From Myxococcota bacterium (GTDB taxonomy: Bacteria > Myxococcota_A > UBA9160 > SZUA-336), in assembly GCA_965247115.1 (NCBI GenBank), contig CBDFGR010000003.1, forward strand, positions 544,001 to 608,000: a stretch of 64,000 nucleotides of DNA, read 5' to 3'. The notes beneath the pieces were generated by a model, which was not told the DNA's origin, made no database searches, and saw nothing but the letters and a program-made list of their open reading frames with translations. Position 1 is the first letter of the stretch, and the number at the start of each line of letters is the position of its first letter. The translations under genes and the position numbers were made by a program. Below are positions 2,814 through 32,524 of this stretch, piece after piece.

Positions 2814-3503
2814 CTATGGCGAGGCACGCGCCCTTCCAGGCACATCCAGCGGATCGAGCAACCCGAGGCGGCGCCAACCCTGCCTGAGAAGCCAGCTGTG
2901 CGCGGCAGCGACCGGAACCTCGTCCCCACTCTCACGCCGCGTTGTTCCTCTTCTCCAGCCGTCAAACCGGCGGCCCGAGGAGGCGGGATCCAGCTCCCTC
3001 AGCCCTTTGCGCCGATGCCGGGCCGCGTTGAGCAGCACGTACCGTATCGCATTCCGGACCTCGCCCGGCGTCTTCAACACCCGCATGTGGTAGCGATCCG
3101 CCAGCAGCCCGCCACGCCACCCAAACGCACGCCGCCTCGCCCAGACCATCCTCCTGCCGAGAGACTTCATCCCCCGACCGAGCGCGTATTGATCCTTCGC
3201 CTCGACGATGAGGTGCGCGTGATCCCGCAAGAGCGCGTAGTGCACCAGCCGAAACTCCCCCCGGTCGCACCCTCGCGCTAGCGTCTCCTCAAACGCCCGC
3301 ACAAAGGCCGGAGCCCGCAACGATGGAGCACCATCGCGCACTCGCAGGGTCACGTGACACGGATGCCGCGACGCGAGACTCCGCCGACTTCGGTGACGAA
3401 CCAGCGGATTCGGCCCCGGCTTGCGCCCCGCCCCCTCGCGCCGCCCGCCATGACGCGCCAGAGGCCGAAGATCGAGCGAGAGCTGTCGGTCTGACTTTCT
3501 CAC
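2814..3503 (-). CDS. IS200/IS605-superfamily HUH tyrosine nuclease, RAYT (REP-associated transposase)-like
   Basis: HVTLR, HYALLRDHAHLIVE (HUH motif), DRYHMRVL, NAIRYVLLN (catalytic Tyr); no tnpB alongside. Confidence 0.8.
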   Translation of the reverse strand: MRKSDRQLSLDLRPLARHGGRREGAGRKPGPNPLVRHRSRRSLASRHPCHVTLRVRDGAPSLRAPAFVRAFEETLARGCDRGEFRLVHYALLRDHAHLIVEAKDQYALGRGMKSLGRRMVWARRRAFGWRGGLLADRYHMRVLKTPGEVRNAIRYVLLNAARHRRKGLRELDPASSGRRFDGWRRGTTRRESGDEVPVAAAHSWLLRQGWRRLGLLDPLDVPGRARASP

Positions 3504-5327: not shown

Positions 5328-6488
5328 TCAGATGACGGCCTTGCCCTCGCGAAGCGCGCTGATCTTCTCGGCTGAGAAGCCCCAGTCGGCCAGCACCTCG
5401 GCTGTGTGCTGCCCGGGATGCGCGGGCGGCGCGGGCACCGCGCACGGCGTGCGACTGAAGCGCGGGGCCGGCGCGGGCTGCTTGACTCCCCCTACCTCGA
5501 TGAAGGTGTTGCGCAGCTTGTTGTGAGGATGCTCGGGCGCCTCGGCGAGCGACAGGACCGGCGCGAAGCACACGTCCGTGCCCTCCATGATGTCGCACCA
5601 CTCGTCGCGCGTCTTCGAGCGGAAGATGGTCGCGATCCGCTCCTTCATATCGGGCCACTGCGAGCGCGACATCTGACCGGGCAGGTCATCGTCCTCGAGT
5701 CCAGAGTACTGCAGAAGCTCCGCGTAGAACTGCGGCTCGATCGAGCCGACCGAGATGTACTTGTCGTCGGCCGTCAAGTAGACGTCATAGAAGTGGGCGC
5801 CCGTGTCCAGCAGGTTCGTGCCGCGCTCCTCGCTCAGCGCCCCCGATGCGCGCATGCCGAAGAACATCGCCATCAGAGTTGCCGCGCCGTCGACCATGGC
5901 CGCGTCGACGACCTGCCCCTTGCCGGAGCTGGCCCGCTCGACGAGTGCGGCCACGACCCCGAAGGCGAGCAGCATCCCGCCCCCGCCGAAGTCCCCGACC
6001 AGATTCAGCGGTGGGACCGGGGCCCCGCCGCGCCGACCGATGCCCTCGAGCGCGCCCGCCAGGGCGATGTAGTTGATGTCGTGTCCGGCAGCGTGGGCAA
6101 GCGGACCCTCCTGACCCCAGCCCGTCATGCGTCCGTAGACCAGGCCCGGGTTGCGCTCCAGACAGACATCGGGACCCACGCCGAGCCGCTCCATGACACC
6201 CGGTCGGAAGCCCTCCATCAGCACGTCAGCCTTCTCCACGAGAGCGAGCAACGCCTCCACGCCGGCGGGATTCTTGAGGTCGATGGCAACGCTGCGACGG
6301 CCACGCGCCAGTGGATCGATCGGCGGACTCGAGCCTTCTTCCGCGCGTCGCGCGGGTGGCCGATCAATCCGAACCAGCTCCGCTCCCATATCCGCGAGCA
6401 TCATCCCGCAAAACGGACCAGGTCCGATCCCCTGCAGCTCGAGAACTTTCACACCCGCAAGTGGTCCCATGCGCCGCTCCCCTGACAC
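5328..6488 (-). CDS. CaiB/BaiF family CoA-transferase, alpha-methylacyl-CoA racemase-like
   Basis: [45 protein letters not shown]. Confidence 0.93.
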
Positions 6489-6572
6489 GAATAGACCCGA
6501 ATACAGCCGTCAGCATACCATCCGCAACCGCCGCGATACCCCCGCAGCACCCGAGACACGTCACCGGGAGTC

Positions 6573-6784
6573 ACCCAGAAACGTGGCGGCACCCCGCACG
6601 GAGTCCGCAACCATGCAAGCGCCACAGCCCGCAGCGCGCGCGTCGAAGAGCGAAACCCAGAGCGTGGCGCCACCCCGCACGGAGTCCGCAACCGTGCAAG
6701 CGCCACAGCCCGCAGCGCGCGCGTCGGAGAGCGAACCCAGAGCGTGGCGCCACCCCGCACGGAGTCCGCAACCGTGCAAGCGCC
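6573..6784 (+). repeat. About 2.5 tandem copies of an 80-81-nt unit
   Basis: CGTGGCG(C)CACCCCGCACGGAGTCCGCAACC(A/G)TGCAAGCGCC starts at 6582, 6663 and 6743; the intervening sequence is also near-identical. Confidence 0.9.
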
Positions 6785-6890
6785 GCGGAACGCGGCGCGC
6801 GCAGCGAAGGCCTCCGGCCTGAGCGAAGGTGGGTGGCCCGCGACCGCTCGCGGGCCGGGTCCCACAAGAACCGGCCGGGTCCCACAAGAC
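6776..6890 (-). repeat. REP-like ~90-nt multi-hairpin element (full copy 6776-6868) plus duplicated GGGTCCCACAAG end
   Basis: Reverse complement reads CTTGTGGGACCC-GGCCCGCGA-GCGG-TCGCGGGCC-ACCCACCT...CGCTTGC; matches copies at ~10.1, 26.6 and 31.3 kb. Confidence 0.85.
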
Positions 6891-6906
6891 TCGGTACCCT
6901 GCGCCC

Positions 6907-8009: not shown

Positions 8010-9884
8010 TTGATGAAGCTCGTGCGGACAGCCTTCCTCCTACCACTCCTGTTCGTTCTCGTGATCAGCGTCGACAGGGAGTCGAACGCCGCCGAGAAGT
8101 TCCCCGAGTCGGACAGCTTGCGCTCCACGGTTGCGTTCTGGATGCGCATCTATCTCGAGGTGACCGGAGGCCAGGGGCTCCTGCACGACTCGCGTCACCC
8201 CGGGATCGTCTACGAGACCGTCGACTTTGAGGGCACCACGGGCAGGCGTGCGCGCCAGCGCCAGGTAAACGAACGAAGACGCCAATGGCGCGGGGCGCTG
8301 GGACGCCTTGGCAGAGGCCGCGAGCCCCGCGACGACGACGAGCGCTTCATCCTGCGCGCGTTCACGCTGGAGCTGGGGCATGAACCCACCCGCCAGGAGC
8401 TCCGTGCCGCCTCACAGCGAGTGCGCTTCCAGCTGGGTCAGCGCGACAAGTTCCGGCAGGGACTGATCGGATCAGGGGCGTACGAGGACGAGATGCGCGC
8501 CATCTTCCGCGACCTGGGACTCCCTGTGGACCTGGCCTACCTGCCCCACGTTGAGTCCTCGTTCAATCTCCGAGCGTACTCGAAGTACGGCGCGGCCGGC
8601 GTCTGGCAGTTCATGCGCGCCACCGGTCGGCGCTACATGACCATCAACTACACGATCGACGAGCGACTGGACCCGATCCGGGCGACGCGTGCCGCCGCGG
8701 AGCTGCTGCGGGACAACTACAAATCGCTGGGGAGCTGGCCGCTCGCGATCACGGCCTACAACCACGGCGATGCGGGAATGAGACGCGCGAAGCGGAGGCT
8801 CGGAACCGACGACATTGCCGTGATCATCGCCAAATACCACAGCCGGACCTTCGGCTTCGCCTCGCGGAACTTCTACCCGCAGTTCCTGGCCGCGCGAAAG
8901 ATCGCGCGCTCGTATCCGTCCTACTTCGGTCCGCTACAGCGCGACAAGCCAGAGGCCGTCGACACGGTGACCCTGCCCTTCTATACGGATGTCGAGGACC
9001 TCCAGGAGTATCTCGACGTAACGCCGGCGCTGCTCAAGGCCTTCAACCCGTCACTGCGGCCGCCGGTCTTTCGTGGAGTGAAGCGCATCCCGGAGAACTA
9101 CATGCTGCGCCTCCCCGCCGGAACGATGCAGCCGGACCCCGAAACCTGGCTCGCCTTGCTGCCCGACGCACAGCGCCATGCCAAGCAGACGCGCAGCGAC
9201 TACTACCAGGTGCGACGCGGCGACACGCTGAGCAGAATCGCCGAGAACCATCGAACGAACGTCTCGACCCTGGTCGCGATCAACAGCCTGCCGAGTCGGC
9301 ATCGCATCTACCCCGGCCAGGTACTCCAGCTGCCAGATGGTACGCGCAAGCCCTCCCGCTCGGCCGGGCTCGTCAGGACGGCCAACGCGGCGCGCCGCAG
9401 CCCGCCGATCCCCAAAGAGAAGATCCAGCCGGCACCCGATCGACCTATGCCCCTGGAAGACAGCTCGCCCTGGCGCAGGCTCGACGGCGAGTGGATCATC
9501 GTCGACGCCGGCGAGACACTGGGACACTTCGCAGACTGGCTCGAGCTTTCAACGAGCCGGCTGCGCAGGCTGAACGGCATCTCGGGTCGGCGCCCACTGC
9601 GCATGGGGCAGCGGTTGCGGATGGACTTCTCGGTCACCTCGCCACAGGTCTTCCTGCAGCGCCGCGTCGAGTTTCACAAGGGGATCGAAGAGGACTTCTT
9701 CGGGAGCTACACGGTCGCGGGCACAGTGGATCATACCCTGCAGCGCGGCGAGAGCCTCTGGGTCCTGTCGCACGATGTCTACACCGTCCCGATCTGGCTG
9801 ATCCATCGCTACAACCCGAAAGCCAACCTCACCCAGCTCAGCCCAGGCGCCACCCTCAAAATCCCAGTAGTGGAGAGGAACTGA
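8010..9884 (+). CDS. MltD-like lytic transglycosylase with LysM domains
   Basis: Signal peptide; LPHVESSF, GAAGVWQFM, AITAYNHG; LysM repeats YQVRRGDTLSRIA and HTLQRGESLW. Confidence 0.92.
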   Translation: MMKLVRTAFLLPLLFVLVISVDRESNAAEKFPESDSLRSTVAFWMRIYLEVTGGQGLLHDSRHPGIVYETVDFEGTTGRRARQRQVNERRRQWRGALGRLGRGREPRDDDERFILRAFTLELGHEPTRQELRAASQRVRFQLGQRDKFRQGLIGSGAYEDEMRAIFRDLGLPVDLAYLPHVESSFNLRAYSKYGAAGVWQFMRATGRRYMTINYTIDERLDPIRATRAAAELLRDNYKSLGSWPLAITAYNHGDAGMRRAKRRLGTDDIAVIIAKYHSRTFGFASRNFYPQFLAARKIARSYPSYFGPLQRDKPEAVDTVTLPFYTDVEDLQEYLDVTPALLKAFNPSLRPPVFRGVKRIPENYMLRLPAGTMQPDPETWLALLPDAQRHAKQTRSDYYQVRRGDTLSRIAENHRTNVSTLVAINSLPSRHRIYPGQVLQLPDGTRKPSRSAGLVRTANAARRSPPIPKEKIQPAPDRPMPLEDSSPWRRLDGEWIIVDAGETLGHFADWLELSTSRLRRLNGISGRRPLRMGQRLRMDFSVTSPQVFLQRRVEFHKGIEEDFFGSYTVAGTVDHTLQRGESLWVLSHDVYTVPIWLIHRYNPKANLTQLSPGATLKIPVVERN

Positions 9885-9902
9885 GCAAGGCTACAGGGCC
9901 AG

Positions 9903-9972
9903 CCGGCCGCGGGTCCCACTAGGCAAGCGACGCAGAGCGGCGCGCACAGCGAAGGGCCTGGCCCTGAGCGGA
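9903..9972 (-). repeat. Partial, degenerate REP-like element
   Basis: GGGTCCCACTAG followed by GCAAGCGACGCAGAGCGGCGCGCACAGCGAAGGGCCTGGCCCTGAGCGGAG. Confidence 0.7.
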
Positions 9973-10100
9973 GATACTCCCTTGCCGTCAAGCAAATCAA
10001 GCGCAGCTCCGACTTCGGCCAAACAAGTTCGGATTAAGGACCGTCCCCAAGTTCAGATTCCGAGGAGAACCGGCAACCTCCTACGGGGCTTGGCACCCAT

Positions 10101-10188
10101 GCAAGCGCCGCGGGAGCGGCGCGCGCAGCGAAGGGCGTAGCCCTGAGCGAAGGTGGGTGGCCGCGGCCGCCCGCGGCCGGGTCCCACA
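10101..10188 (-). repeat. REP-like ~90-nt multi-hairpin element, full copy
   Basis: GCAAGCGCCGCGG...AGCGAAGGGCGTAGCCCTGAGCGAAGGTGGGTGGCCGCGGCCGCCCGCGGCCGGGTCCCACA, between convergent genes. Confidence 0.85.
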
Positions 10189-26616: not shown

Positions 26617-26846
26617 TTGTCTTGTGGGACCCAGGGCGCGGGCGGCCGCGCCCTTCCTTGTGCGGCCCGGGGCGCGGGCGGCCGCGCCCTGCCCACCTCC
26701 GCTCAGGCCAGGGGCCTTCGCTGCGCGCGCCGCGGCGGCGCTTGCTGGGTGCCTGTCCGGTTCGGCCCAGGGGCGCGGGCGGCCGCGCCCTGCCCACCTC
26801 CGCTTAGGCCAGGGGTCTTCGCTGCGCGCGCGGCGCTTGCTGGGTG
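26617..26846 (+). repeat. Cluster of tandem REP-like elements (one partial, two near-full)
   Basis: AGGGCGCGG-GCGG-CCGCGCCCT-type stem three times; CCCACCTCCGCT(C/T)AGGCCAGGGG(C/T)CTTCGCTGCGCGCGC...GGCGCTTGCTGGGTGC twice. Confidence 0.85.
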
Positions 26847-26851
26847 CGGGG

Positions 26852-28093
26852 TTAGTAGTGGGTTGGGGGGCGGGGGAGGAGTTCTAGGCGGAATCTGCGG
26901 GCGTCTTCTGGGGGGGTGGCGACCAGGACGGTGAAGCCGTGGACCGATGAGGGGGGGCGGGCGCGGGTCCACTCGGCATAGTCGACAAGCTGATCGCTGA
27001 GAGAGTCTGGTGTGAGCTCGCTGTCCTTCAGCCTGACGAGGACTGCGGAGGTTGGATCGCTCAGTCCCCTGCCGGAACGATCAAGGAGCGTGGCCTGCAC
27101 GTCCGGCGCAGGCTCGCGCCCGCTCTTGTACAGTTTTCCGCGGATCACGATGACGGGCTGACCTGTCGCGTCGTGCAGACGGTGAACCTGGAGCTCGGTG
27201 GCCTGCCACCCGTTCGCGTCGACCGCTGCGGGGCCCCCGACCTCGCCCATACCGTGAAGAGCCACCGCTCGCACACCTCCGGCGGACAGCGCAATCGCGA
27301 CGACGATCGCCAGCACGCGCAGCGTGAAGCTCTCGAGATCCGGGCCGCGCGGCGTGACCTCGCCGTGTGCCGGGGTACCGCGCGAGCGCTTGGGAATGAT
27401 GCTCGAGATGTCCGTTGTGGCGCTTACCGGTGCGTCGGCGCTTCCGACCGGAGACAATCCCGACACCTTCCCCGAAGCCAGCGTGTCCCAGCTCTCGAGC
27501 CCGTCTCCATCATCGTCCAGCTCCGGAAGTGACGGGCCAGCGCCGCCGAGATCATCGCTCGGCCCTTCGCCGAACTCGTCATCGCCCTCGCCGATCCCGG
27601 CAAAAGACTGCTCATCGGGGCCAGCGTTATCCGCGACCGCCTCACTGGGCGAGGGCGCGATCGCCGCAACGGGCGATGGCTCGTCAGGCGCGGGCTCGTT
27701 AGGCGCGGGCTCGTCAGGCGCGGGGCTCTCCTCCGGCTCGTCGGGGTGATCCTGCCAGCCTGTCTGCCCGTAGTCCTGTCCGGGCATCGGAGTCTCGCTG
27801 CCCTCAATCTCCATCGCGGCGGCGTCGTCAGCGTCACCACCCTCGGATGACTCCTCCTCCCGATCGAAGAGGAACTGAGGGTTGTCGAGGTCCGTCTCGG
27901 TGCTCGCTCCCCGCTCATCCATCTCGGGCGGGACGCTATCCTGCTCTTCTGGCTCGGCCGAGGTCTCGTCGACGGAGGGCGTGACAAGGAAGCGGTGATG
28001 GCAGCGAGAGCAGCGAACCCAAGCGCCTTTCTCGGGAATCCGCCCGTCCGCCACTTGAAAACGGGTCTCGCAGCTAGCACACGTGATTACCAT
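26852..28093 (-). CDS. Zinc-ribbon (MJ0042-type) protein with acidic linker, TM helix and DUF3426-like C-terminus
   Basis: CASCETRF...VRCSRCHHRF; D/E/P-rich linker; hydrophobic VLAIVVAIAL. Confidence 0.8.
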   Translation of the reverse strand: MVITCASCETRFQVADGRIPEKGAWVRCSRCHHRFLVTPSVDETSAEPEEQDSVPPEMDERGASTETDLDNPQFLFDREEESSEGGDADDAAAMEIEGSETPMPGQDYGQTGWQDHPDEPEESPAPDEPAPNEPAPDEPSPVAAIAPSPSEAVADNAGPDEQSFAGIGEGDDEFGEGPSDDLGGAGPSLPELDDDGDGLESWDTLASGKVSGLSPVGSADAPVSATTDISSIIPKRSRGTPAHGEVTPRGPDLESFTLRVLAIVVAIALSAGGVRAVALHGMGEVGGPAAVDANGWQATELQVHRLHDATGQPVIVIRGKLYKSGREPAPDVQATLLDRSGRGLSDPTSAVLVRLKDSELTPDSLSDQLVDYAEWTRARPPSSVHGFTVLVATPPEDARRFRLELLPRPPTHY

Positions 28094-28182
28094 CGCCGGG
28101 ATCTTCCTCGTCGAGTCGAGACGGAACCACTCGTCTCCACCATTCGCCTCGGCGCCGAGAGTCCGCCGCTTGAGAGCGCAGG

Positions 28183-29169
28183 ATGAACCCAGCCCTCCAC
28201 AGACTCACCCGGCGCCGGCTCCTGATGGTCATGGGCAAAGGCGGCACCGGGAAGACCAGCCTCGCAGCCGCCCTGGGTGTTCTCGCCGCGCGGCACAGCG
28301 TCGAGACAGTGGTGATCGAGGTCGCCTCTCTGGCTGCGCTCCCGGCCCTGCTCTCCGGAGACGTCCCGACTCCGCGCGAGTCCCGCAGTCCCTTCGAGGT
28401 GGCCCCGCACCTGTCCACCCTGCGCGTGATCCCGAAGCTGGCGCTGGAGGAGTACCTCGAGCGGCAGCTTCCAGTCGGGCGGCTGGCGGGCGCAATCGTC
28501 CGCAACGCGGGCTTCCAACGCTTTCTGGATGCGGCACCAGGTTGGCGCGAGCTGATCACGCTGGGAAAGATCTGGCACCTCGAGCGCCAGCTGCAGGGCG
28601 GCCAGCCCCGGTACGACCTGATCGTGGTCGATGCGCCCGCAACCGGCCACGGCCTGTCCCTTCTGTCTGTCCCAGGGGTCGTGCTGGACAGCGTGCGACT
28701 CGGGCCCCTGCACAGACATACGGACGCGGTCTGGAGCCTGCTGCGTGATCCGGAGAAGACCATGGTCCTGCCGGTCAGCCTGCCCGAGGAGCTCCCCGTA
28801 AGGGAGACCCTCGAGCTATGCGCGAGGGTTCGGCAACTCGGGCTGCGTGCAGGAACGCCGATCGTCAACTGCGTCGAGACGCCCCCCGCGCTCGCGGATC
28901 CCGATTCCCTACTGGACGCGATCGCCGAGCTCGAGCGGAATAGCGCGCCCTCGCCGCTGGCCCAGCCCGCCGCGCTCGGCGCGTCGCTTCGCCAGCAGGT
29001 CGGGCGTGCGCGCATGCAGCGCGAGTACATCGGCAAGCTCCAGGCAGGCTGCGACGCAACGCCGCTGGAGCTCCCCTACCTGGTAGAGGGCGTTCAGGGT
29101 CCGGACGCGGTGGAGCTCCTGGCCGATGCGCTAGAAGCCGCGCTCGCGCAATCTGGAGACCCCGAGTGA
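28183..29169 (+). CDS. ArsA/Get3-family ATPase, single domain, first of a pair
   Basis: MGKGGTGKTS, APGWRELITLGKI, VDAPATGH, PEELPVRET. Confidence 0.88.
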   Translation: MNPALHRLTRRRLLMVMGKGGTGKTSLAAALGVLAARHSVETVVIEVASLAALPALLSGDVPTPRESRSPFEVAPHLSTLRVIPKLALEEYLERQLPVGRLAGAIVRNAGFQRFLDAAPGWRELITLGKIWHLERQLQGGQPRYDLIVVDAPATGHGLSLLSVPGVVLDSVRLGPLHRHTDAVWSLLRDPEKTMVLPVSLPEELPVRETLELCARVRQLGLRAGTPIVNCVETPPALADPDSLLDAIAELERNSAPSPLAQPAALGASLRQQVGRARMQREYIGKLQAGCDATPLELPYLVEGVQGPDAVELLADALEAALAQSGDPE

Positions 29170-30344
29170 GGCCCGACGCGTGGCTCGACCTCCGGGTCCT
29201 GGTGACCGTCGGCACGGGCGGGGTGGGGAAGACAACGGTCAGCGCCGCCATCGGGCTCGAGGCTGCACGCCGCGGCAAAAGAACTCTGGTCATGACGATC
29301 GATCCCGCCCGCCGCCTGGCAGATGCTCTGGGTGTGGATGGGCTCGGCCACGAGCCCCGGCGGCTACCTCACTTGCAGCCTGGTGAGCGCGAAGGCGCTG
29401 GGGCCGGGTCGCTGGACGCGATGATGCTCGACACGAAGCGGACCTTCGACGAGCTGGTCACACGCCTCTCCCCGGATAAGGAGTCTCGCGAGCGGATCTT
29501 CGCCAACCCGATCTACCGCAACCTGACGGACGCTCTCGCGGGCAGTCGTGAGTACTCGGCGATGGCGAAGCTACACCAGCTTCACCGCGACGCCGCCTAC
29601 GATCTGATCATCGTCGATACGCCGCCGGCGAGTCACGCGCTCGACTTCCTCGACACCCCACGCAGGCTCAGCAGCTTTCTCGACAGTGGTTTTCTGAAAG
29701 TCCTTCTTCACCCCGCCGCCGCAGTCGGGCGAACCGGCTTCCGCTTGTTTCGCGTCGGCTCTGAGCTCGTGCTCCGAGCCCTCGAGCGCATCAGCGGGAT
29801 CGAATTCCTTTCCACGATGTCGGAATTCCTCGTGGCGTTCGAGGCGATGCTCGAGGGCTTCATGAAGCAGGGCCAGGAGGTCGAACGTCTGCTGCGAGAT
29901 CCCGCGTGTGGCTTCGTTCTGGTAGTTGGACCGGACGCGGAGCAGGCCCGGCGAGCTCACTCGTTCTGGCAGCGGCTCGAAGCCGAGCGGCTGCGGATGG
30001 CAGGAGTGGTCTTGAACCGCGTACACGTCTGGTCGGAGGGCGCAGCGCCACCGCCCCAGGAGAAAGCAGAGCGACTGCAAGCGGTCGAGTGGGTACGCAA
30101 GGAGCTCGCGGAGCGAGGGTACGAGCCCGGTTGCGGCGATGTCGCGGAAGCCCTGATCGCGACTTCGGAGCGACAGGCAGCGCTGGCTCGACGGGACGCC
30201 GCGGTGCTCCGGGTACTCGAAGAGGCGCTCCCGCTGGAGCGCGCAGAGGTGCGCTTGATCCCGCTCTTCGCCGAGGACGTCCACACCCTCGATACCCTGG
30301 AATGGATGGGAGAGAGAATTTTCAGCGAGGCTGGCGATGCCTGA
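29166..30344 (+). CDS. ArsA/Get3-family ATPase, single domain, second of a pair
   Basis: GTGGVGKTT, TIDPARRLADALG, GSREYSAM, VDTPPASHALDFL. Confidence 0.88.
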   Translation: MRPDAWLDLRVLVTVGTGGVGKTTVSAAIGLEAARRGKRTLVMTIDPARRLADALGVDGLGHEPRRLPHLQPGEREGAGAGSLDAMMLDTKRTFDELVTRLSPDKESRERIFANPIYRNLTDALAGSREYSAMAKLHQLHRDAAYDLIIVDTPPASHALDFLDTPRRLSSFLDSGFLKVLLHPAAAVGRTGFRLFRVGSELVLRALERISGIEFLSTMSEFLVAFEAMLEGFMKQGQEVERLLRDPACGFVLVVGPDAEQARRAHSFWQRLEAERLRMAGVVLNRVHVWSEGAAPPPQEKAERLQAVEWVRKELAERGYEPGCGDVAEALIATSERQAALARRDAAVLRVLEEALPLERAEVRLIPLFAEDVHTLDTLEWMGERIFSEAGDA

Positions 30345-30684
30345 ACACCCCCCGCTGCTGCTCGAGCTGGCACGCGCAGTCGACGAGCTGCTCCAGGCCG
30401 CTGCGCGCGCCAGCTCGGACCTGCGCGGCCGGGCGAAGACCGGCGCAGGGCCCTACGGCTCGACCCGACTGGCCGAGCTTCTCGCCCGTACGCTCGACCA
30501 GGTGGAGGGGCCGGCCCTCGCCTCGCTGCGCCGCGGACTGCGCCAGGAGCAGCAGCGCTGGGCCGCACGCGCCGCCCGCGATCCGAGCGCAGCACGCGTT
30601 CGCGATGTGATCGCAGCTGTGCTTACGGTGCTGGAGCCCGACCCGAGTGGACCGTGCGAAGCCCGTGGACGCAGGACGCCTTGA
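30337..30684 (+). CDS. Hypothetical protein
   Basis: Overlaps the upstream stop; helical Ala/Leu/Arg-rich ORF filling the gap before phaR. Confidence 0.55.
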   Translation: MPEHPPLLLELARAVDELLQAAARASSDLRGRAKTGAGPYGSTRLAELLARTLDQVEGPALASLRRGLRQEQQRWAARAARDPSAARVRDVIAAVLTVLEPDPSGPCEARGRRTP

Positions 30685-30726
30685 ACGTTTGACGGGCTGC
30701 GTCCGCGGGTGGATACTCGCAAGCCG

Positions 30727-31248
30727 ATGGCGGTACTGATCAAACGCTACGCGAATCGCAAGCTCTACAACACTGAGTCCAGCCGTTACATCACTCTCAA
30801 AGGCGTCTCTGAGCTCGTGCGTGAGGGCAAGGACATTCACGTCATCGACAACGAGTCGGGCGAAGAGATCACCCCAATCATCCTGTCGCAGATTCTCGTC
30901 GACGATCAGAAGCAGAACCGAGACAACACCGCGCTACCGGGTACGGTGCTCACGGAGCTGATCCAGCGCAGCGGCGACGCGCTCTACACCCTGTTCCGTC
31001 GTTCGATGACCGACGTGCAGGACAACATCACCGACGCGCGCCAGAACGTTCGGCGCTGGATGAACACGGACGAAGGCGAGTCCGCGATAGACGTATCCGA
31101 GATCTCTACGGCAGTTCACGAAGCCGTCGAGCGCGTTCTGCGCGTCATCGACCTCCCAACACGCGCGGACCTGGAGGCGTTGAACAAGAACCTCGAGCGC
31201 CTTACGGCCGCACTCGAGTCCTTCGATGCCCGCCTCGACTCTGACTAG
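30727..31248 (+). CDS. phaR: PHA synthesis regulator PhaR-like DNA-binding protein with a phasin-like C-terminus
   Basis: IKRYANRKLYNTESSRYITL, IDNESGEEIT...LSQIL; LPTRADLEAL. Confidence 0.88.
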   Translation: MAVLIKRYANRKLYNTESSRYITLKGVSELVREGKDIHVIDNESGEEITPIILSQILVDDQKQNRDNTALPGTVLTELIQRSGDALYTLFRRSMTDVQDNITDARQNVRRWMNTDEGESAIDVSEISTAVHEAVERVLRVIDLPTRADLEALNKNLERLTAALESFDARLDSD

Positions 31249-31260
31249 GTCTCGCTGAGT

Positions 31261-31436
31261 CTTGTGGGACCCGGCCGCGGGCGGCCGCGGCCACCCACCT
31301 ACGCTCGCCTACGGCTCGCTGCGCGCACCGCGTTCCGCGGCGCTTGCCTTGTGGGACCCGGCGCGCGAGCGGTCGCGCGCCACCCACCTACGCTCGCCTA
31401 CGGCTCGCTGCGCGCGCCGCGTTCCGCGGCGCTTGC
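31261..31436 (+). repeat. Two head-to-tail REP-like elements (31261-31347, 31348-31436)
   Basis: CTTGTGGGACCC-stem-GCGG-stem-ACCCACCTACGCTCGCCTACGGCTCGCTGCGCGC...CCGCGTTCCGCGGCGCTTGC twice. Confidence 0.9.
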
Positions 31437-31476
31437 GGGGTGCCCTGACGCGGGATGGGGTGCCCTGACGCGGGAT
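31437..31476 (+). repeat. 20-nt perfect direct repeat x2
   Basis: GGGGTGCCCTGACGCGGGAT twice, directly after the REP-like pair. Confidence 0.85.
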
Positions 31477-31519
31477 CGGGTGACGGTCGCTTCTGACGGT
31501 CGCTCTCTAGCAGGGGGTG

Positions 31520-32524
31520 CTAGCGGTCGGTTGCTAGTAGGGATTGGATGGTGGTGCGGACTTGTTCGCGGACTCGGTTTATGTAGAGGGGGTCGTCTGA
31601 GCGCTCGGGGGCGATGTTGTCGAAGGGGATGGGGGTGCCGAAGCGGATGCGCCACTGGCTGGGGAGGGGGACGAGGCCGAGTGGGCCCAGCATTGGGAAG
31701 GTTGGCGTCAGCGGGAGGGGGAAGCCGAGCAGCTGACGCGTGAGCGATGGAACCGCGAGTACGGGGTGGACCTCCTCCGCGCCCGTCACGCCCACCGGGA
31801 CCAACGCGGCTCGCCTACGTACCGCGAGCGAGACGAACTCGCCCCGACCGAAGCGCTGCAGCTTGTAGCGCTCGTGGTAAGGCTTGAGGGCGCCCCGTTG
31901 CCCCTCCGGAAAGGCCACGACCGAGTGGCCGCTCGCAAGCAGGCGGTCCGCGTTCTCTCGACAAGCGCGCACTCCACCGAGGCGGGCCAGGAGCGGCTGG
32001 GCAAACGGCAGCGTGGACAGCCAGTCGGCGACGAGAAAGCGCGGCCGGCGGCGCGTAGGGTGCTCGCGCGCCACGGCGTGCGCAATCATGAGACCGTCGT
32101 ACGGGAGCACGCCCGAGCGGTTCGCCACAAAAAGCACGGGCCCGCGGTCCGGAATTTCCCCGGCTCCCACGGCCCGGACGCGCCACCAGGTGTCGTACAG
32201 GAAGTCCAGAAGCACCCGAGCGCTCTCCACGTATTCGGGCTCGAGCCCGAACTCGTCGATGCTCTGGGAGGTGCATGCTCGTTCCCCTGCGAAGACCCTC
32301 CCGCGCAGCGCATCGTAGAGCTCGACCAGGCTCAGCTCTTCGAGCCGACGGCCGAGCCACGCGAAGACTCCGCCGGGAGGGTCCGACGCCTCGGCGGCGG
32401 GGTCGCCCACGGATCCGAAGCCGCGCTCGAGCTGCACGCGCAGCTCCGCGACGGAGGCGCGCAGCTCGTCCAGCTCCAGGCTCGACGAGCCGCGAGCCGG
32501 CCCGGGTTGCGGCTGGACGCTCAT
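31520..32524 (-). CDS. Lysophospholipid acyltransferase (LPLAT/MGAT-like)
   Basis: IDEFGL, FVANRSGVLPYDG, AFPEG, LVPVGVTGAEE; ATGA coupling to the epimerase gene. The usual NH-x4-D His reads NR here. Confidence 0.85.
   Translation of the reverse strand: MSVQPQPGPARGSSSLELDELRASVAELRVQLERGFGSVGDPAAEASDPPGGVFAWLGRRLEELSLVELYDALRGRVFAGERACTSQSIDEFGLEPEYVESARVLLDFLYDTWWRVRAVGAGEIPDRGPVLFVANRSGVLPYDGLMIAHAVAREHPTRRRPRFLVADWLSTLPFAQPLLARLGGVRACRENADRLLASGHSVVAFPEGQRGALKPYHERYKLQRFGRGEFVSLAVRRRAALVPVGVTGAEEVHPVLAVPSLTRQLLGFPLPLTPTFPMLGPLGLVPLPSQWRIRFGTPIPFDNIAPERSDDPLYINRVREQVRTTIQSLLATDR

Follow-up and report, generated by a model that had tools for sequence, protein, structure and literature searches.

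Short intergenic repeats of a Myxococcota genome lie at the start of polar G/T-rich tracts and point to a possible strand-directed mutator

What makes the DNA next to a short intergenic repeat rich in G and T on one strand, down to the silent sites of the adjoining genes? The question is raised by a 64,000-nucleotide stretch of the genome of a Myxococcota bacterium (GenBank assembly GCA_965247115.1, contig CBDFGR010000003.1, positions 544,001 to 608,000; hereinafter the window), in which a preliminary description had reported one-sided, C-depleted tracts 3' of elements resembling repetitive extragenic palindromes (REPs) and had ascribed them to repeated nicking by HUH/RAYT enzymes at GTRG-footed hairpins. 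These elements are copies of an 89-nt repeat, here family A, with 185 matches at 141 loci of the source genome (G000; 5.17 Mb, 65.6% GC). We call the strand that runs 5' to 3' away from a repeat the leaving strand and its complement the approaching strand; genes point toward a repeat when their 3' ends face it, and keto and amino stand for G/T and A/C, respectively. The rule that emerges is that the leaving strand is G/T-rich and the approaching strand C/A-rich, in accordance with the orientation of the repeat and not with that of the gene.

The window contains four such loci. Right after the tatA stop codon, a locus with a duplicated head and two tandem family A units (26617-26847, plus strand; matches at 26661-26744 and 26772-26837) is followed by a leaving-strand tract (26848-26980, plus) over about the last 40 codons of a minus-strand zinc-ribbon gene (called at 26852-27922; the longer open reading frame (ORF) of the preliminary description reaches 28093), along which the silent-site keto excess runs from 0.48 through 0.32 to about 0. 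Two tandem full units after a phaR-like gene (31261-31436, plus) precede a G/T-rich spacer with short local tandem duplications (31437-31519, plus; 20 nt, twice) and a leaving-strand tract (31520-31700, plus) over the last 60 codons of a minus-strand acyltransferase gene (31520-32524). Recounting reproduced exactly the third positions first given for these two genes: 42 C, 10 A, 4 G and no T at 31523-31690, and 29 C, 7 A, 2 G and no T at 26855-26968. A reversed unit with a duplicated head (6776-6892, minus) has its tract at 6330-6775 (minus), which comprises a spacer with three local copies of ~80 nt and the first ~45 codons of a CoA-transferase gene, G/T-rich on the sense strand; here C-ending codons are indeed scarce among the first 43, though they number 6 and not 5, and 6490-6575 is C/A-rich on the plus strand as described (36 C, 24 A, 18 G, 8 T). 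Lastly, a composite locus (9911-10188, minus) with a full family A unit (10101-10188), partial units and a terminal-repeat motif of a second family, B (about 10038-10053), adjoins a tract at the 3' end of an mltD-like gene (9810-9884, minus) that is weaker, as had been noted, and also short. The repeat-free convergent junctions at ~24190 and ~57940 are likewise as ordinary as described (20-24 C of 50); the genes on the other flank, also called ordinary, are less so, the tatA, phaR and acyl-CoA dehydrogenase ends being mildly C-rich (26-29 of 50).

Genome-wide, the copies of family A are intergenic, lie beside stop codons and form tandem arrays; where both orientations occur at one locus, they are tail to tail (21 of 21 loci). 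The unit is predicted to fold into three hairpins (fold z −0.07), and it has a fixed 5' end, which follows a CTTG, and a variable 3' extension, which ends in CTTG(C). The GTRG-footed hairpin of the preliminary description was not recovered: the GTGG of family A pairs inside the first predicted stem, and the nearest strong hairpin begins 9 nt further on. At the 120 loci with family A in one direction, the GC skew 20-220 bp away was positive on the 3' side in 107 and on the 5' side in 33, and the G and T excess had faded by 400-500 bp; the tracts measure 120-300 bp. At the 96 loci with family A alone, the 3' side had a skew of +0.14 to +0.16 in the first 150 bp and of +0.07 between 200 and 300 bp, and the 5' side a weaker mirror image (−0.04 to −0.06 within 100 bp, z −3). 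In family B the mirror is full and stronger (−0.22/+0.24 at 17 single-orientation loci, −0.32/+0.28 at 10 pairs); hence, the reported tie to orientation holds and strict one-sidedness does not.

For the coding flanks we relied on gene calls from an in-house hexamer model in place of a standard caller, which may miss short, heavily skewed genes. Of the gene ends no more than 150 bp from a repeat, 68 of 179 had a synonymous skew above z = 3, versus 71 of 3875 distant ends, and gene starts carry the opposite sign (below −2.5 in 17 of 95 near repeats versus 70 of 3951 distant ones). Four-fold C on the leaving strand is reduced within 200 bp of the family A 3' end (×0.66 in toward-pointing and ×0.76 in away-pointing genes) and more so beside family B (×0.39-0.56), returning to 1.0 by 300-500 bp, which bears out the predicted decay with distance. 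The loss is nevertheless not of C alone: A is also depleted on the leaving strand, while on the approaching strand U is depleted and A enriched, and two-fold sites show both C>T and A>G on the leaving strand. No dinucleotide context stands out at four-fold sites, and a context-specific deaminase was rejected on this ground. Codon positions 1 and 2 move in the same direction as silent sites, as do the non-coding spacers (C 0.27-0.30 and G 0.37-0.38 versus 0.32-0.33 each), and this shift across all site classes supports a skew of mutational character. At the protein level, His, Pro, Leu and Thr are increased in toward-pointing genes and Val and Gly in away-pointing ones. The GC and TA skews of flank windows are correlated (r 0.39 versus −0.09 in the background), and local duplications were counted in 11 of 104 flanks on the 3' side, in 4 of 104 on the 5' side and in 33 of 1824 controls.

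The association is also recovered from the opposite direction. In an unbiased scan for the 173 strongest tracts, the G/T strand had family A or B at its 5' end in 69 and at its 3' end in 3, with another repeat in 22; random windows contained A or B in 31 of 1500 cases. Family B, whose sequence is unrelated to that of A (102 motif matches in G000, with dimers across the genome), has a GGGGWSAS-like motif that forms the terminal inverted repeats of a Y1 transposase gene. Also at the 5' ends of tracts are a third, long-hairpin family (C), whose orientation was left unset as its pattern matches both strands, and the promoters of a multi-copy Y1 gene. CTTGC terminates family A, family C and the terminal repeat of a relative discussed below (G142) just before the tract; family B ends differently. 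A palindrome adjoining gene remnants, which we take to be HNH-like, has a strong G/T tract beyond it at three loci of G000 (C3:1425537-1425600, C3:2443013-2443070 and C2:280700; +0.28). Strong tracts without a recognised repeat include a whole epimerase-like gene (C3:434028-434979, z 8.3) and the segments C1:122070-122300 and C2:1566100-1566500.

Only one of the six Y1 genes of G000 is flanked by family B and none by family A; thus, no cognate RAYT of family A was found among them. The B-flanked (TIRYT) gene lies at C3:2177.0-2178.0 kb (L001:1000-1980) between mutY and an aroC-like gene, the latter named from our reading of its sequence; it has an inverted repeat score of 31, scores 76.2 bits against NF047646 (cut-off 80), has a C-terminal helix-turn-helix-like part and carries strong mirror flanks. 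It is frameshifted after the catalytic domain in G000 and in the sequencing run X1. Runs X4 and X6 are one base shorter at this point, so that conspecific strains likely hold it intact. With this query no such gene was found in two other genomes, G001 and G002, and the corresponding site of G002 has just a family B remnant. In a survey of TIRYT-like loci in genomes that were not de-duplicated (64 of 88 with a detectable inverted repeat), downstream-minus-upstream keto content was +0.045 (positive in 39 of 61) and −0.014 further out; with a host GC content of 58% or more it was positive in 20 of 30, and in hosts with less GC it was weak. G030 lacked it, and all 3 loci of G161 (L211, L217 and L220) had the opposite sign. 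The host thus decides the flank skew at these loci. The multi-copy Y1 genes (2814-3503 of the window, minus strand, and four further copies, L002-L006) share an upstream motif and have G-rich third positions, and genes upstream of some copies have C-rich ends; the window copy scores 36.8 bits against NF047646 (cut-off 80) and lacks flanking A or B repeats.

Several general explanations were excluded. Ordinary hairpins are not the cause, as none of 52 gene ends at 47 junctions with stems of 12-16 bp exceeded z = 3. Convergent ends were skewed in 51 of 130 cases with a repeat versus 22 of 1066 without, the latter having a small same-sign effect of 0.026. All four transcription layouts were positive, including divergent junctions (26 of 34 flanks; 0.078 versus −0.001 in controls), so that read-through from the opposite side is not needed. 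An effect of the replication strand was rejected, since leading-like and lagging-like strands are skewed alike (94 of 105 and 99 of 114), by a rough proxy in which the 100-kb skew flips sign several times. Neither are the tracts an assembly artefact: contigs of other samples span them with few differences among the matches listed, and G002 aligns through them. In two runs the contigs 150-400 bp from family B were broken and diverged by 3-4% (against 2.4% further out in one of the runs), and 31 differences, compared with G002, had no clear direction.

Termination by Rho allowed a separate test. The source genome has rho, whereas in one bacterial family the Rho RNA-binding domain gave no match in the four genomes tested (G142, G027, G108 and G161), and G142, a single contig at 97% completeness, gave none to two Rho domains; G024 of the same family does have a Rho N-terminal match. 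G142 holds 163 matches to its own terminal repeat, in about 80 terminal-repeat pairs. We sampled 38 of its loci (the first 18 distinct ones listed and 20 pairs, with at least 2 chance matches kept) and took the distal parts of the same loci, beyond 500 bp, as control. In its toward-pointing genes the leaving strand had G 0.755 and C 0.19 within 100 bp versus 0.51 and 0.42 beyond 500 bp, with 45 of 54 flanks above the baseline. The skew in a genome with no Rho match indicates that rut sites are not required, and with the skewed divergent junctions of G000 it led us to reject the Rho-dependent terminator as the cause. The alternatives that the preliminary description had set against its own claim, namely a skew that follows gene ends or rut sites, fail on the convergent-end, transcription-layout and G142 counts.

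G002, a congener of about 87% DNA identity, opens a view on the history of the tracts (1550 orthologues in 2.35 of 5.8 Mb, chosen toward element-rich regions; with no outgroup, a gain by G000 cannot be told from an erosion in G002). G002 has no element at any of the four window loci, and amino-to-keto changes exceed the reverse in the acyltransferase (28 versus 8) and zinc-ribbon (30 versus 17) tracts; in 18 more distant orthologues the acyltransferase end is ordinary (17-30 C of 56 versus 42 here). At the same junction G010 (L010) has a tandem array without skew, and G013 (L014) a hairpin with a G/T-rich sense strand on both sides. At sites with an element in G000 alone, amino-to-keto changes number 282 versus 152 in reverse (38 genes up and 12 down of 59); where both species have one, which holds for 111 of 177 element-adjacent genes, they number 476 versus 234, as against 3389 versus 3211 in controls. 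Judged from these alignments, the skew appears to have been gained or kept in the element-bearing lineage, which the counts support. Within 200 bp (148 genes, 3713 sites), the net flux comprises C>G (291 versus 124; 45 per 1000 sites, gene bootstrap 34-57), C>T (155 versus 76; 21, 12-32), A>G (124 versus 82; 11, 3-20) and T>G (121 versus 85; 10, 3-16), with controls within about 2. The C>T/C>G spectrum foreseen in the preliminary description is therefore present in part: C>G leads, and A>G and T>G are added. The diversification of gene ends that it proposed is modest (amino-acid difference 0.130 versus 0.113). Several repeat-free tracts of G000 are junctions where G002 carries a family B element; these read as scars of lost copies, and favoured insertion sites would fit them too.

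The same bias occurs in a gene pair with no hairpin. The two tuf genes of G000 (C1:49743-50933 and 65464-66654; L168 and L172), 99.4% identical over 1190 bp, are its most G/T-ending genes (z 9.1 and 9.0), sharply bounded by the ORF and with normal neighbours (fusA, rpoB and ribosomal-protein genes). Their four-fold sites resemble those of family B flanks (C 0.11 and G 0.73 versus 0.15 and 0.69). Across the class, 13 of 16 tuf loci (9 of 11 genomes with full tuf) have a keto content of 0.71-0.86 versus 0.41-0.57 in neighbours, three partial loci of the original 19 being left out. Two paralogue families of 12-17 copies and 85-88% identity (C2:2004000-2058000 and dispersed) are mildly G/T-ending, like the GRINS considered below.

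We tentatively read the tracts, at a little under an even chance, as the cumulative trace of low-fidelity DNA synthesis in short patches that begin at the repeat. The 3' end needed would arise there through an HUH nick, with the TIRYT as the cognate enzyme for family B, or through strand invasion of one copy by another; the new strand would be extended from the repeat, 5' to 3', for 200-300 bases and come out enriched in G and T. The polymerase would be a host enzyme, with ImuB-DnaE2 as a candidate (G000 has an imuB-dnaE2 pair and two further Y-family matches), and the same host process may recode the gene-converting tuf pair, as a GRINS process that the repeats trigger at a fixed point. Wobble and G:G misinsertion would put G or T into a new strand. 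Low-fidelity synthesis is favoured on three grounds: all of the changes in excess bring G or T to the leaving strand, the length of the tracts is in keeping with a repair patch, and local duplications are concentrated on the 3' side; overall, the net spectrum fits it better than plain cytosine deamination. As for the candidate polymerase, a review has imuB/imuC required for G:C>C:G and A:T>C:G changes in UV-treated Caulobacter (PMC3901139), and another source gives them just a minor role in spontaneous mutation (PMC7198004).

A number of observations weigh against this reading. The trigger and the polymerase are candidates, and an imuC-type second dnaE and mutS occur in 5 of 5 genomes tested, including hosts with no skew or a reversed one. 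No repeat was recognised at the 5' end of 82 of the 173 strongest tracts, 51 insertion sequence (IS) ends have little flank skew (at most +0.057), most near-identical duplicates are unskewed, with large paralogue families mildly so, and the two-fold sites of tuf lack the T gain of the flanks (0.17 versus 0.28). Divergence beside repeats is just 0.310 versus 0.272, about 14% more. At matched distance toward-pointing genes are more affected (0.170 versus 0.124; 0.095 versus 0.062), and the away-pointing flanks of G142 are weak and not significant (11 of 19); together these imply that transcription or element age matters, which the model leaves unexplained. Elements present only in G002 show no lineage gain (159 versus 182), which, set beside the gain at G000-only sites, points to a stronger process in the G000 lineage; that G002, with no TIRYT gene detected, shows none at its own elements does fit low-fidelity synthesis. 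Moreover, fixation biased toward GC would conceal C>T and raise the number of changes to G, and the spectrum thus leaves room for deamination.

Of the alternatives, the one closest to the preliminary description survives best, although we consider it doubtful: an HUH (RAYT or TIRYT) nick with strand displacement would expose the leaving strand, which would deaminate at C and A, with GC-favouring fixation making it G-rich. Both amino bases are indeed lost there, the two-fold changes are of the expected kind, and the B-flanked TIRYT gene combines strong mirror flanks with runs lacking the extra base and with its absence from the search of G002. According to PMC8266576, the 3'-OH left by HUH cleavage can serve as a primer for synthesis, and the cut made by TnpA-REP lies 5' or 3' of REP. 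Yet C>G makes up the biggest part of the net change, T>G is in excess as well, no HUH gene could be tied to family A, and unrelated repeats and the hairpin-free tuf pair share the bias. The loci of this transposase family are mostly unskewed in low-GC hosts and reversed in G161. A dCMP-inserting bypass enzyme is, to our knowledge, not described in bacteria.

It is unlikely that a host protein attached to the repeats halts replication forks or transcription complexes (R-loops), with restart or repair making the mirror skew and neither transposase nor recombination involved. Such a protein would suit three unrelated families with the same skew, the dependence of TIRYT loci on the host and the modulation by transcription direction; against it stand the independence of replication-strand sign, the unskewed ends beside 12-16 bp hairpins and the dispensability of read-through from the other side. 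We give hardly more weight, and if anything slightly less, to the possibility that repeats merely insert or survive at sites already skewed. In its favour, G000 is equally skewed where only G002 has the element (0.598 versus 0.583), G002 is slightly above control at G000-only sites (0.565 versus 0.535), and most element-adjacent genes have one in both species; however, G000 shows a net gain where it alone has the element, the 18 acyltransferase orthologue ends are ordinary, polarity tracks the orientation of family A, and the repeat-free G000 tracts at G002 B sites are as expected of lost-copy scars. Selection on RNA for C-rich, G-poor gene ends, for Rho termination at rut sites or for an unstructured transcript beside the hairpin, is very unlikely: the stronger effect in toward-pointing genes, the rho gene of G000 and the small same-sign effect at repeat-free convergent ends speak for it, but the sense-strand sign is reversed in away-pointing genes and at divergent junctions of G000, the approaching strand has less U and more A, the tracts lie in translated codons with changed amino acids, and the skew of G142 leaves the Rho version largely refuted.

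Elsewhere in the window, an adjacent pair of ArsA/Get3-like ATPase genes upstream of the phaR-like gene (28183-30344) has its best matches, below cut-off, to BagA and BagB. A metagenome scan for family A gave 12 matches with 1 true element and went unused, and the 8 matches in 12 stretches of G001 (keto 0.52 downstream versus 0.49 upstream) were too few for use. We found no paper on skewed halos beside REP, terminal inverted repeat or MITE sequences, in a search that was thin on subscription papers and did not extend to GRINS supplements. What this analysis adds is a control in which Rho was not detected, a substitution spectrum against the sister species and, within one genome, the connection with tuf. 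The repeats reshape the codon use and protein termini of their neighbours, and so bias inferences of codon usage, selection and horizontal transfer at gene ends.

How do these tracts and repeats compare with known systems? Family A is like REP/BIME/REPIN sequences with RAYTs, as outlined in PMC8266576, in its abundant intergenic hairpins by stop codons, tandems and inverted pairs; it differs in its 89-nt three-hairpin unit, in lacking a GTAG or GTRG foot and in having no cognate RAYT that we could find. The CTTG target tetranucleotide at its ends, fixed 5' end and variable 3' extension recall IS91-type elements (PMC13181058), a resemblance only: G000 has one partial match to a Y2 transposase, with no A ends beside it, where an intact gene with matching ends would be needed, and we rejected this link. 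Family B, with its Y1 gene between GGGGWSAS-like terminal inverted repeats, belongs with the TIRtrons/TIRYTs (Di Nocera 2013, PMC3733652; TnpA-Y1 subclass 2.1.2, bioRxiv 10.1101/279083); the accessible parts of these two sources do not mention flank skew, and family A is unrelated to B.

In replication-linked keto skew the leading strand is G/T-rich. The sign of the tracts is that of the strand synthesized away from the origin; they span 300 bp and not megabases, are 3-8 times stronger than the genome's 0.03-0.05 and are independent of it.

The closest likeness is to GRINS. According to PMC8256042 and PMC10394414, these have correlated G>C and T>A skews, strongest at third positions, as the tracts have; the former adds a gain of Gly/Val on the G/T strand and of Pro/His/Thr on the C/A strand, again as here, and describes both signs on one strand and an overlap with transposases and endonucleases, the cause being unknown in both accounts. 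GRINS are there duplicated regions of more than 500 bp, whereas the tracts are single-copy, 200-300 bp long and outside the short repeat, with a fixed start, direction and decay. The coding tracts match only themselves at the identity of over 80% to another locus that defines GRINS, which the tuf pair does show, and they remain shorter than 500 bp. The paired skew values of the definition are reached at 31437-31800 (0.40/0.24) and 6330-6775 (0.24/0.43), not at 26845-27145 (0.24/0.07) or 9600-9910, and stand at 0.26/0.13 in tuf. Thus, the tracts fall outside the definition of GRINS but look like the same process, and the two skews may share a cause. We consider it possible, with somewhat less confidence than in low-fidelity synthesis itself, that short mobile repeats are the fixed start points of a strand-directed mutator that explains GRINS, their abrupt C/A-to-G/T switches and the G-recoded tuf genes. 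A mechanism for GRINS has been lacking since 2021 because start points were unknown; if the proposal is true, each C/A-to-G/T switch in GRINS would mark such a point, and dated scars would map lost elements. For comparison, the elements of a sister species occupy other insertion sites, the HUH gene is apparently intact in some strains and not in others, Rho was not detected in one relative, and the skew is absent or reversed in some hosts; the tracts themselves offer a GRINS-like skew whose starting point, polarity and extent within single-copy DNA are defined, in more than 140 replicates per genome.

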